A model generated the notes under the pieces. The model was not told the origin of the DNA, did not search any database, and saw only the letters and a list, made by a program, of their open reading frames with translations. Shown one piece after another: positions 616-4,005 of a stretch of DNA of 4,005 nt; position 1 is the stretch's first letter, and each line of letters starts with the position of its first letter. This stretch comes from a virus (lineage: Duplodnaviria > Heunggongvirae > Uroviricota > Caudoviricetes), in the IMG/VR virus record IMGVR_UViG_2778261417_000003. One strand, 5' to 3'. The position numbers and the translations under genes were made by a program.

Positions 616-1143
616 TCTGAACATCAGTCCACGCTGAGCGCGGGGTATCTTCATGCCTCGACGAACGTTCCCGGCAGTGATGATCTGAACGGGATTAACG
701 TGAAATACCGTTATGAGTTTACGGACACACTGGGGATGGTGACGTCGTTCAGCTATGCAGGAGACAAGAATCGCCAGCTGACCCATTACAGCGATACCCG
801 CTGGTATGAAGATTCCGTGCGTAACCGCTGGTTCAGCGTGATGGCGGGGCCGTCTGTACGCGTGAATGAATGGTTCAGCGCGTATGCGATGGCAGGCGTG
901 GCTTACAGCCGTGTGTCGACTTTCTCCGGGGATTATCTCCGCGTAACTGACAACAAGGGGAAAACGCACGATGTGCTGACCGGAAGTGATGACGGTCGCC
1001 ACAGCAACACGTCTCTGGCGTGGGGAGCTGGCGTGCAGTTTAACCCGACCGAATCCGTGGCCATTGATATTGCTTATGAAGGCTCCGGCAGTGGCGACTG
1101 GCGCACTGACGGGTTCATCGTGGGTGTTGGTTATAAGTTCTGA
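544..1143 (+). CDS. lom: Lom, an Ail/Lom/PagC-family 8-stranded beta-barrel outer-membrane protein (lysogenic-conversion / virulence-associated)
   Basis: The 199-aa ORF begins MRKLYAAIFSAAICLAVSGAPAWA-SEHQSTLSAGYLHAS..., which closely matches the lambda Lom sequence as I recall it. It has a typical Sec signal peptide with an AWA-SE signal peptidase I site, alternating amphipathic beta-strand segments, and a C-terminal ...VGVGYKF ending in Phe, the usual OMP beta-barrel assembly signature. Position between J and stf matches lambda. Confidence 0.92.
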   Translation: MRKLYAAIFSAAICLAVSGAPAWASEHQSTLSAGYLHASTNVPGSDDLNGINVKYRYEFTDTLGMVTSFSYAGDKNRQLTHYSDTRWYEDSVRNRWFSVMAGPSVRVNEWFSAYAMAGVAYSRVSTFSGDYLRVTDNKGKTHDVLTGSDDGRHSNTSLAWGAGVQFNPTESVAIDIAYEGSGSGDWRTDGFIVGVGYKF

Positions 1144-1169
1144 TTAGCCAGGTAACACAGTGTTATGAC

Positions 1170-1196
1170 AGCCCGCCGGTTCAGGCGGGCTTTTTT
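1170..1196 (+). terminator. Rho-independent terminator downstream of lom
   Basis: Perfect GC-rich stem GCCCGCC (1171-1177) pairing GGCGGGC (1184-1190), closed by an extra A-T pair (1170/1191), 6-nt loop ggttca, then TTTTTT (1191-1196). It starts 27 nt after the lom stop codon. Confidence 0.85.
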
Positions 1197-1198
1197 GT

Positions 1199-1203
1199 GG
1201 GGT
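1199..1203 (+). promoter_or_regulatory. Weak Shine-Dalgarno-like element for stf
   Basis: GGGGT at 1199-1203, 4 nt upstream of the ATG at 1208. It is G-rich but only a partial match to AGGAGG. Confidence 0.4.
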
Positions 1204-1207
1204 GAAT

Positions 1208-4005
1208 ATGGCAGTAAAGATTTCAGGTGTACTGAAAGACGGCACAGGAAAACCGGTACAGAACTGCACAATCCAGCTGAAAGCAAAACGTAACAGCACC
1301 ACGGTGGTGGTGAACACGCTGGCATCTGAAAATCCGGATGAAGCCGGGCGTTACAGTATGGACGTTGAGTACGGTCAGTACAGCGTTATTCTGTTGGTGG
1401 AGGGATTCCCGCCGTCACATGCCGGGACCATCACCGTGTATGAAGATTCTCAACCCGGTACGCTGAATGATTTTCTCGGTGCCATGACGGAGGATGATGC
1501 CCGTCCGGAGGCACTGCGCCGTTTTGAGCTGATGGTGGAAGAGGTGGCGCGTAACGCGTCCGCGGTGGCACAGAACACGGCAGCCGCGAAGAAATCAGCC
1601 AGCGATGCCAGCACATCAGCCCGTGAGGCGGCAACCCATGCGACTGATGCTGCAGGCTCAGCACGCGCAGCCAGCACGTCAGCCGGACAGGCCGCGTCGT
1701 CGGCTCAGTCAGCGTCTTCCAGCGCAGGAACGGCATCAACAAAGGCCACTGAAGCGGAAAAAAGTGCTGCCGCTGCAGAGTCCTCAAAAAGCGCGGCGGC
1801 CACCAGTGCCGGTGCCGCGAAAACGTCAGAAACGAATGCTGCAGCGTCACAAAAATCAGCAGCCACTTCTGCATCCACTGCGACGACGAAAGCGTCAGAA
1901 GCCGCCACTTCAGCCCGGGATGCGGCGGCCTCCAAAGAGGCGGCAAAATCATCAGAAACGAGCGCAGCCTCGAGCGCCAGCAGCGCAGCTTCCTCGGCAA
2001 CGGCGACAGCAAATTCTGCGAAGGCGGCCAAAACGTCCGAGACGAACGCTAAGTCTTCTGAAACGGCAGCGGGACAGAGTGCCTCAGCTGCGGCAGGCTC
2101 AAAAACAGCGGCTGCGTCGTCTGCCAGCGCCGCGTCAACAAGTGCCGGGCAGGCCTCAGCCAGTGCCACCGCCGCCGGAAAATCGGCAGAAAGCGCCGCA
2201 TCATCCGCTTCAACAGCCACAACGAAGGCTGGCGAAGCCACTGAGCAGGCCAGCGCAGCAGCGAGGTCAGCTTCCGCAGCGAAGACATCCGAAACGAACG
2301 CGAAAGCGTCGGAAACCCGTGCAGAATCCTCAAAAACGGCTGCCGCATCGTCCGCCAGTTCGGCGGCGTCATCGGCATCATCTGCGTCTGCTTCAAAAGA
2401 TGAGGCGACCAGACAGGCGTCAGCAGCGAAGGGCAGCGCCACGACAGCATCCACGAAGGCGACAGAGGCAGCTGGCAGTGCGACGGCGGCAGCACAGAGC
2501 AAAAGTACGGCGGAATCCGCGGCAACGCGCGCCGAGACAGCGGCAAAACGGGCAGAGGATATTGCATCCGCCGTGGCGCTTGAGGATGCGAGCACGACGA
2601 AAAAGGGGATAGTCCAGCTCAGCAGTGCGACCAACAGTACGTCTGAAACGCTGGCGGCAACGCCAAAGGCAGTAAAATCAGCCTATGACAATGCAGAGAA
2701 ACGTCTGCAGAAAGACCAGAACGGCGCTGATATACCCGATAAGGGACGCTTCCTGAACAACCTTAACGCGGTCAGTAAAACAGACTTTGCTGATAAGCGT
2801 GGTATGCGTTATGTGCGGGTTAACGCTCCTGCAGGTGCAACATCTGGAAAATATTACCCTGTTGTTGTTATGCGTTCTGCTGGCTCAGTAAGCGAACTGG
2901 CATCAAGGGTCATTATCACCACGGCAACGCGAACCGCAGGCGATCCGATGAATAACTGCGAGTTTAACGGATTTGTTATGCCTGGTGGCTGGACTGACAG
3001 GGGGCGTTATGCTTATGGAATGTTCTGGCAATATCAAAACAATGAACGAGCCATCCACTCAATAATGATGAGTAATAAGGGCGATGATTTGCGCTCTGTG
3101 TTCTATGTTGATGGCGCTGCTTTCCCTGTTTTTGCGTTTATCGAAGATGGCCTGTCAATATCCGCACCTGGTGCTGATCTCGTTGTTAATGATACGACCT
3201 ATAAGTTTGGTGCAACAAATCCGGCGACTGAATGTATCGCGGCGGACGTTATCCTTGATTTTAAGAGTGGGCGTGGTTTTTATGAGTCTCATTCGTTAAT
3301 CGTTAACGATAACTTGTCGTGCAAAAAACTTTTTGCCACAGACGAAATTGTAGCGCGTGGTGGTAATCAGATTCGAATGATAGGTGGGGAGTATGGTGCA
3401 TTATGGCGTAATGATGGCGCTAAAACTTACCTGCTGCTTACCAATCAAGGTGATGTTTATGGTGGCTGGAATACATTAAGACCGTTTGCTATTGATAACG
3501 CAACCGGCGAGCTGGTTATTGGAACCAAACTGTCCGCAAGTCTGAACGGTAATGCATTAACAGCAACAAAGCTGCAAACACCAAGACTGGTTTCTGGGGT
3601 TGAGTTTGATGGTTCCAGAGATATTACTTTAACCGCCGCGCACGTGGCTGCTTTTGCCAGAAGGGCAACGGATACATATGCCGATGCGGATGGTGGCGTT
3701 CCCTGGAATGCCGAATCAGGCGCTTACAATGTCACCCGCTCTGGCGACAGCTATATTCTGGTTAACTTCTATACCGGAGTCGGAAGTTGCCGGACCCTGC
3801 AGATGAAGGCGCATTACAGAAATGGAGGTCTGTTCTACCGTTCCTCAAGAGATGGCTATGGTTTTGAGGAAGGCTGGGCAGAAGTTTATACCTCGAAAAA
3901 TCTTCCACCAGAAAGCTACCCAGTTGGCGCACCAATCCCGTGGCCATCAGATACCGTTCCGTCTGGTTATGCCCTGATGCAGGGGCAGACTTTTGACAAA
4001 TCTGC
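1208..4005 (+). CDS. stf: Side tail fibre protein Stf, long mosaic form, 3'-truncated by the window edge (at least 932 codons present)
   Basis: Hand translation in frame 2 from ATG 1208 shows no stop codon through base 4005. The N-terminus [62 protein letters not shown]... matches the lambda Stf N-terminus as I recall it. A long Ala/Ser/Thr-rich repeat region follows, then a central module, and the window ends in ...[29 protein letters not shown], which resembles the conserved lambda Stf / T4 gp37-type segment. The ORF track omits it because it lacks a stop in the window. The length and central module resemble the long Stf homologues of E. coli lambdoid prophages (StfR-like) more than lambda Stf itself. 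Confidence 0.9.
1820..2572 (+). repeat. Three imperfect in-frame tandem repeat units inside stf (about 210, 252 and 290 bp), each starting with the motif K-T-S-E-T-N-A
   Basis: The units start at 1820 (aaa acg tca gaa acg aat gct), 2030 (aaa acg tcc gag acg aac gct) and 2282 (aag aca tcc gaa acg aac gcg). Each also carries a recurring SSK-x-AAA-S/T-SA submotif (near 1778, 2093, 2321). Composition is almost entirely Ala/Ser/Thr with scattered Lys/Glu, and very GC-rich at the DNA level. Confidence 0.8.

Follow-up and report, generated by a model that had tools for sequence, protein, structure and literature searches.

In Ur-lambda, the side tail fiber protein Stf consists, from its N terminus on, of a collar domain (residues 1-91), linker (92-101), proximal coiled coil (102-393), hinge (394-422), distal coiled coil (423-525), and gp37-like receptor-binding domain, and the N-terminal domain assembles into a dodecameric collar encircling the tail (PMC12617516). 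Lambda recombines with stfR/tfa of the Rac prophage by homologous recombination, tail fiber exchange of this kind is well documented, and stf-associated invertases have been suggested as drivers of ancient fiber gene exchange between unrelated phages (De Paepe et al., PMC3945230). Here we analyzed a 4,005-nucleotide (nt) stretch of DNA from a virus of the Caudoviricetes (IMG/VR record IMGVR_UViG_2778261417_000003; "the window" is this whole stretch), which carries a partial side tail fiber gene, stf. A central segment of the gene, here called the module, had been described in a first-pass annotation of the letters alone as a mosaic cassette, absent from lambda Stf and marked by a sharp drop in guanine-plus-cytosine (GC) content. 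Judged by its sequence, the gene is the already known StfR of the Rac type, and the module is probably a middle shaft composed of at least three pieces that appear to have been exchanged separately.

The window protein matches StfR of the Escherichia coli K-12 Rac prophage at 97.96% amino acid (aa) identity in a single, collinear high-scoring segment pair over residues 1-932, with the module in the same position and with the same domain order; the C-terminal ~190 residues (the tip) and tfa lie beyond the window end and outside this comparison. DNA identity with K-12 Rac is 97.1% (window 954-4005), the protein is 97-99% identical to the fibers of phage 2H10 and of one clinical E. coli strain, and the E. 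coli genomes matching the window annotate the gene as stfR. The tail attachment model PF08400 scores 240 bits (cutoff, 26.6) over residues 1-134, and the gene leaves the window 26 residues into the phage tail collar domain (PF07484). The module is no unknown segment; it belongs to a protein 98% identical to K-12 Rac StfR, and two-thirds of it matches known fiber domains. In three relatives with ~97% DNA identity to the window, tfa, which is outside the window, directly follows stf, and the downstream order in K-12 Rac (stfR, tfaR, and the invertase gene pinR) recurs in phage 2H10. The fiber gene is laid out as follows.

1208..4003, + strand: stf, a partial side tail fiber gene of the stfR type (ATG at 1208; 932 codons, open at the window end)
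1208..1609, + strand: N-terminal tail-attachment domain, Stf residues 1-134 (PF08400 phage_tail_N, E = 7.8e-72)
1610..2599, + strand: Ala/Ser/Thr-rich proximal coiled-coil tract, recognized by composition, its high GC coming from GCN/TCN/ACN codons
2600..2677, + strand: conserved linker, the last stretch in common with lambda and the left recombination junction relative to it (blastn)
2678..2764, + strand: module piece 1 (module residues 1-29), like the end of the Mu constant part (Sc)
2748..2773, + strand: degenerate equivalent of the Mu gix inversion crossover, placed by codon alignment (compare L007 1455-1480)
2798..3307, + strand: module piece 2a, domain A (module residues ~41-210), an autonomous, beta-rich globular knob
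3323..3535, + strand: module piece 2b, B (module residues ~216-286), a T4 gp34-like trimeric beta-helix/prism (the PF21446 envelope is wider, 3191-3493)
3578..3685, + strand: fiber-repeat linker (module residues ~301-336), which holds the junction between the A+B and C cassettes
3686..3924, + strand: module piece 3, C (module residues ~337-415), gp37_C- and Mu S′-like
3925..4003, + strand: start of the phage tail collar domain (PF07484 Collar model positions 1-26) and right recombination junction

The module is sharply bounded relative to lambda. Against lambda NC_001416, blastn aligned window positions 1016-2116 (87%), 2421-2676 (80%), and 3926-4005 (87.5%) and found no alignment within 2677-3925, so that the boundaries read from the letters alone (2678-3924) fall within 1 to 2 nt of the computed breakpoints (2676 and 3926). 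The lambda sequence after the shared motif continues ...TPKAVKVVMDETNRK / KAVKVVMDETNRK, just as the first-pass annotation had stated, and the segment that follows in the window is neither collinear with nor similar to lambda Stf. It is indeed 415 aa long with four cysteines (module positions 94, 186, 215, and 371), and its reported richness in aromatic residues and glycine is moderate (Gly, 10.6%; Tyr+Phe+Trp, 11.3%; mainly Gly and Tyr). The module is absent from lambda as had been claimed, but it is a replacement and not a pure insertion: lambda carries an unrelated 441-bp (147-aa) segment at this place (residues ~386-532). Since the KAVK motif ends at lambda residue 385 and homology to the window returns at about residue 533, the module stands in for the lambda hinge and distal coiled coil.

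On either side of the module the fiber is lambda-like. The N-terminal domain, the coiled-coil tract, and the KGIVQL...KAVK linker are common to both proteins (80-87% DNA identity), as is the sequence from the collar motif onward (87.5%), and in full-length relatives the 217 to 230 aa after the module are 70-72% identical to the lambda Stf C terminus and Tfa is 93-94% identical to lambda Tfa. These flanks make the module a mid-fiber replacement, with the receptor-binding tip beyond the window. The Ala/Ser/Thr tract corresponds to the proximal coiled coil of lambda (residues 102-393), and within it positions 2117-2420, ~304 bp or ~101 codons, have no lambda counterpart, so the proximal shaft is expected to be longer than that of lambda. 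Tandem Repeats Finder detected no regular DNA repeat in the window; the repetition of the tract is one of composition only.

Most of the module can be matched to described fibers, among them those of phage Mu. Mu S residues 116-140 contain the motif of the conserved linker, and in most of the divergent E. coli alleles this linker is 96-100% conserved; piece 1 aligns to Mu S residues 141-170, with homology ending at about Mu 172-173, and is 86-97% conserved in most alleles whose A+B part is only ~60% identical. Linker and piece 1 together match Mu S 116-173 (PDB 5yvq) with E = 1e-14. Piece B hits PF21446 (Gp34_trimer) with 99.8 bits for the module alone and 96 bits for the whole protein (cutoff, 27), aligns with T4 gp34 residues 1036-1106 (4uxe, 5nxf; phmmer E of about 1e-11), and also matches Mu S residues 268-336 (5yvq). 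The region of gp34 that it matches is a trimeric, triple beta-helix interrupted by beta-prism domains (PMC5537660). For the fiber repeat, homologues carry a precomputed PF03406 (Phage_fiber_2) match. Piece C scores marginally against PF12604 (gp37_C; 24.9 bits for the module alone, cutoff 22.5, and unlisted in the whole-protein scan), a score supported by the much stronger match to residues 318-415 of the Mu S/S′ chimera 8ju3 (E = 5e-20); it and the variable part of Mu S′ (residues 164-249) share 46.5% identity. An AlphaFold2 monomer prediction of the whole module with its flanks (468 aa, 13 sequences) reached a mean predicted local distance difference test score (pLDDT) of 39.9 and was left out of the fold comparisons. 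Scans of the module for Rfam families, tandem repeats, promoters, and terminators gave nothing convincing.

The known systems thus matched differ from StfR in architecture. In Mu S/S′ (5yvq, 8ju3), linker plus piece 1, B, and C all have counterparts, and none was found for domain A; the Mu fiber is attached to the baseplate of a contractile tail and stops shortly after its C-like domain, but StfR runs on into a lambda/gp37-type collar and needle. The T4 gp34 C-terminal region (PF21446; 4uxe, 5nxf, 5nxh) resembles module residues 216-286, but only ~70 to 100 residues are common, and in T4 they lie near the knee of a four-protein fiber, in StfR in the middle of a single-chain side fiber. The whole module is found at 54-65% identity in the Queuovirinae 9g, JenK1, and HdK1, and the 9g fiber was annotated by its depositors as "similar to lambdoid Rac prophage"; slur01, Vibrio phi 3, and Aeromonas phiAS4 gp37 share domain A only. 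These Queuovirinae and the T5-like and T4-like Vibrio and Aeromonas phages differ from Rac in being virulent, with other backbones and other tips (slur01 has a Peptidase_S74-type C terminus), and identity to domain A in their fibers descends to 25-40%.

Domain A is the part of the module that falls outside these described families. It carries the signature AP.G..GKYYPV ... DPMNNC.F.G.V..GGW.DR ... ERAIHSI ... FYV...AFPV, has no Pfam or NCBIfam model, being covered solely by the whole-fiber PHROGs 6578, 454, and 745, and was matched to Mu S or S′ by neither blastp nor phmmer. Exhaustive searching of 1.84 billion representative proteins with HMMER recovered 133 representative clusters at E ≤ 1e-3, of which 114 reach E ≤ 1e-10; in these clusters it forms a discrete block of ~165 to 175 aa within fibers of 400 to 2,700 aa, among them fibers of T5-like, T4-like, Queuovirinae, and other phages. 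In all 69 fibers of 600 aa or more it is internal, followed by no fewer than 85 residues (median, 451), and its neighbors vary, the anchors being PF08400 or PF12571 and the tips Peptidase_S74, Collar, or Phage_tail_C_2. In an alignment of 55 sequences (mean column identity, 37%) the signature motifs are visible, and the AlphaFold2 model built from it is compact and mostly beta (mean pLDDT, 91.7; predicted template modeling score, 0.88). In the model numbering, N63 is invariant and T53, D78, and E94 are nearly so, in a strongly conserved motif. Searched against a viral model library, domain A has confident matches (template modeling score of ≥0.7) exclusively to tail fibers, those named being JenK1, Vibrio phi 3, Aeromonas pAh6-C, Aeromonas phiAS4 gp37, and navn, along with two unnamed entries. 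We found no solved structural relative.

A profile of domain A searched against PDB sequences returned solely antibody heavy chains (E ≥ 0.018), and we rejected these as chance matches. The likeness is to the stretch from complementarity-determining region 2 to framework region 3 of heavy chains and nanobodies (E = 0.018 to 1; G..R.GG.TDY..SVKGRFTISRD...AVYYC against GfVrsGGWsDRgsyvsGvFtiY..ERaIHS..FYVE), and it was judged to be chance because the fold searches lent no support to a confident immunoglobulin relationship.

Comparing divergent E. coli alleles segment by segment, with the window copy as the reference, revealed that the module does not travel as a unit. Alleles P0070 and P0074 are 99-100% identical to the window in A+B and 28-35% in the repeat and C, and P0083, P0087, P0095, P0112, and P0100 have the opposite pattern (57-62% in A+B, 97-99% in C), so that identity switches in both directions at module residues ~295-310. 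On the left, P0083 and P0087, which keep the conserved linker, are 86% identical in the Mu-like tail and 36% just after it, which places the left switch at about residue 30 and not at the lambda junction; measured against Mu and against a number of divergent E. coli alleles, the left junction falls ~30 residues inward of the lambda one. In megablast searches, module nt 928-1247 (part C) occurs alone in other E. coli fiber genes. From these identity profiles the module appears to consist of at least three pieces with separate histories, separately exchanged, in place of the single cassette first proposed, and the histories of A+B, C, and the flanks seem to differ among themselves and from that of the phage backbone.

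The module is widely distributed. At least 80% of the whole window is present in 1,162 of 5,426 complete E. coli genomes, where the gene is annotated stfR; at least 80% of the module is present in 1,307 of them and some part of it in 1,970. Viable lambdoid phages, in which it functions, carry it at 98.8-99.3% identity (2H10, Kati, Chlobot, mEp332, ev099, and PhiR34_1), and other phage groups carry it at lower identity (Queuovirinae 9g, JenK1, and HdK1, 54-65%; P2-like, 57%; P1, 59%). The proposal of a mosaic segment spread by horizontal exchange stands on its sharp lambda breakpoints and its occurrence in unrelated phage groups; its GC argument is largely confounded by composition, its single unit does not stand, and the segment is not an unknown one.

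Two further observations concern these matches. Against complete E. coli genomes, the whole window has a best match of ≤97.4% and the module alone reaches 99.4%, so the window is itself mosaic relative to every listed genome. Several database proteins in which the module is 96-100% identical (P0033, P0034, P0037, P0038, P0040, P0042, P0089, P0109, and P0110) were labeled by their sources as a "short-chain fatty acid transporter," a "terminase large subunit," or an "ATP-dependent Clp protease proteolytic subunit"; these names look like annotation errors or mis-joined gene calls.

The drop in GC content that had been read as a signature of exchange is largely an effect of amino acid composition. 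The hand counts behind it are exact (0.667 for 2101-2160, 0.450 for 2821-2880), and over whole segments GC is 0.627 in the repeat tract and 0.473 in the module. Ala makes up 38% of the tract, Ser 24%, and Thr 13%, which raises GC at second codon positions (GC2, 0.803 versus 0.467 in the module), and the gap at third positions (GC3, 0.536 versus 0.417) is much smaller; most of the drop is therefore compositional. A smaller shift is real. Module GC3 (173/415) is below that of the rest of stf (287/516; Fisher P = 2.4e-5) and of J plus lom (200/356; P = 7e-5), and at 4-fold degenerate sites the module has a GC of 0.416 versus ~0.58 (P = 3e-4). By part, 4-fold GC3 is 0.344 in A, 0.391 in B, and 0.516 in C, the last close to the flanks (upstream, ~0.58), so the residual shift is confined to A+B, and the unit delimited by the allele switches is the AT-shifted unit. 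The A+B part may have originated in an AT-richer phage gene pool, with which the GC3 of its homologues in the virulent phages 9g (0.374) and slur01 (0.299) is consistent. A raw GC plot across a low-complexity Ala/Ser/Thr tract overstates foreignness, and GC3 or 4-fold sites are preferable.

The left junction also coincides with a recombination site known from Mu. The G-segment boundary annotated in Mu falls within TTATCCAAAACCTCGGTTTACAGGAA (encoding FIQNLGLQ); codon-aligned to it, window positions 2748-2773 read GCTTCCTGAACAACCTTAACGCGGTC (encoding RFLNNLNAV), in which part of the left half-site is kept and none of the right. The end of homology to the Mu constant part coincides with the gix position and with the start of divergence in several E. 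coli stfR alleles, and this constant/variable junction at the Mu crossover position looks like a relic of an invertible fiber segment. Searches of the window found no match to Mu gix with ≤3 mismatches and none to the AAACCNNGGTTT core with ≤2 mismatches. In K-12 Rac and phage 2H10, the invertase gene pinR is found downstream of tfa, in the region beyond the window, and a search of these two relatives for an inverted partner site found only chance-level repeats (best, 21 nt with 76% complementarity). We rejected an active invertible segment for the window, there being no intact gix site in it and no convincing partner site in its relatives.

Taken as a whole, the module is probably a composite, exchanged middle shaft of the Rac-type fiber, most likely a trimeric spacer with a knob and not the primary receptor-binding tip. 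Its parts, filling the place of the lambda hinge and distal coiled coil, are a Mu S constant-part-like tail (2678-2764), an AT-shifted cassette of the domain A knob and the gp34-like B (about 2765-3577), and the fiber repeat followed by the gp37_C/Mu S′-like C (about 3578-3924). Exchange would occur by recombination at short conserved linkers: KGIVQL...TPKAVK, the gix-equivalent FLNNL, the ATKLQT...FDGS repeat, and the PIPWPSD collar motif. The module would determine how long and how stiff the fiber is, and with what geometry, from the proximal coiled coil to a distal needle beyond the window, and this needle, Tfa assisted and similar to those of lambda and T4 gp37, would be the receptor-binding part. 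The internal placement of domain A in all 69 of those fibers, its varied anchors and tips, and the lambda-like C terminus and Tfa of full-length relatives count toward the module not being the tip. We found no published work specific to the structure or receptor of the StfR central region.

Several points weigh against a spacer role. The A+B alleles in E. coli are discrete and ~60% identical within flanks that are 97-100% identical. Discrete divergent alleles in near-identical flanks are often seen in host specificity determinants. The conserved polar residues of domain A could form a ligand or metal site instead of serving core packing, and the failure of the whole-module monomer prediction (pLDDT 39.9) leaves the trimeric architecture without a model. 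The purely structural role given to domain A is an assumption made by default.

The same alleles and polar residues are what favors a different function, in which domain A, alone or with B, is an auxiliary host surface-binding module (e.g., lectin-like) providing a second specificity besides the needle. Mid-fiber second binding domains have a precedent in T-shaped fibers (PMC11990801), but domain A has no significant lectin or carbohydrate-binding similarity, searches for a lectin fold in the module returned nothing significant, and its key motif is conserved across phages of very different hosts; we consider this function possible but unlikely. A broader form of the idea, that domain A is an unrecognized, widely shared mid-fiber binding module, for example for a conserved envelope glycan, strikes us as quite improbable, and a spacer with a knob remains the reading that we favor.

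The reading favored here takes the module to be horizontally exchanged. It is very unlikely that the module is instead ancestral to lambdoid Stf and was lost by lambda, its composition being an artifact and no acquisition having occurred. Most of the GC drop does fall at codon position 2, where the Ala/Ser/Thr tract explains it, module GC (0.473) is near that of J in the same window (0.48), and StfR-type genes are far commoner in E. coli genomes than lambda itself. However, a simple deletion is insufficient to account for the unrelated 147-aa segment that lambda has there, GC3 and 4-fold GC3 are still significantly lower in A+B (P = 2e-5 and 3e-4), the pieces are found separately in fibers of P1, P2-like, Mu, T4-like, T5-like, and Queuovirinae phages, and the sub-cassettes recombine independently among E. 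coli alleles. An enzymatic domain (depolymerase or glycan hydrolase) or an intramolecular chaperone, folds that the first-pass annotation had suggested looking for, is extremely improbable, as no catalytic tailspike, depolymerase, or hydrolase domain and no Peptidase_S74 chaperone domain was recognized in the module by sequence profile or fold.

The rest of the window, with the gene order J-lom-stf, holds two further genes.

1-471: 3′ end of J (PF12421), with an intact J C terminus
544-1143: lom (PF06316), intact

Here the window differs from K-12 Rac, in which J is absent and an IS5-family element interrupts lom. Strong hairpins like those of intrinsic terminators follow J (493-516, + strand; 10-bp stem and T run) and occupy the lom-stf gap (1170-1191, + strand; 8-bp stem with 7 G-C pairs, then TTTTTGTGGG); flanking lom, the two may shield its expression in the lysogen from the late operon, which under antitermination would read through them. 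Open reading frames in alternative frames or antisense cross the GC-rich tract (1605-2612, + strand, 335 aa; 1705-2634, − strand, 309 aa; 1431-2012 and 2049-2567, − strand) and most likely result from GCN/TCN/ACN codon bias instead of being genes; the annotated hypothetical lambda orf206b, at the corresponding position on the minus strand (L001 3148-3768), may be an artifact of the same type. Short open reading frames on both strands of 2678-3924 (45 to 71 aa) were dismissed, as nothing supported them.

Mosaic exchange of fiber segments among unrelated phages has been textbook knowledge since about 1990, and, with fiber gene mosaicism long established and the gene already known, the finding matters little as it stands: the E. 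coli K-12 reference carries an StfR annotation, as do about one in four complete E. coli genomes. The natural junctions (between KAVK and S, at the FLNNL point, in the ATKLQT/FDGS repeat, and at PIPWPSD) are ready-made fusion points for chimeric lambda fibers, whose engineering has already been carried out at lambda R393 and S528 (PMC11338833). The one mildly new element is domain A, a confidently folding, widely shared fiber domain without a curated family or a solved structure, which would be a sensible candidate for structure determination and binding assays. If it were a binding module, StfR-type and many other lateral fibers would have two receptor contact points, and the A+B alleles of E. 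coli would be host range variants.

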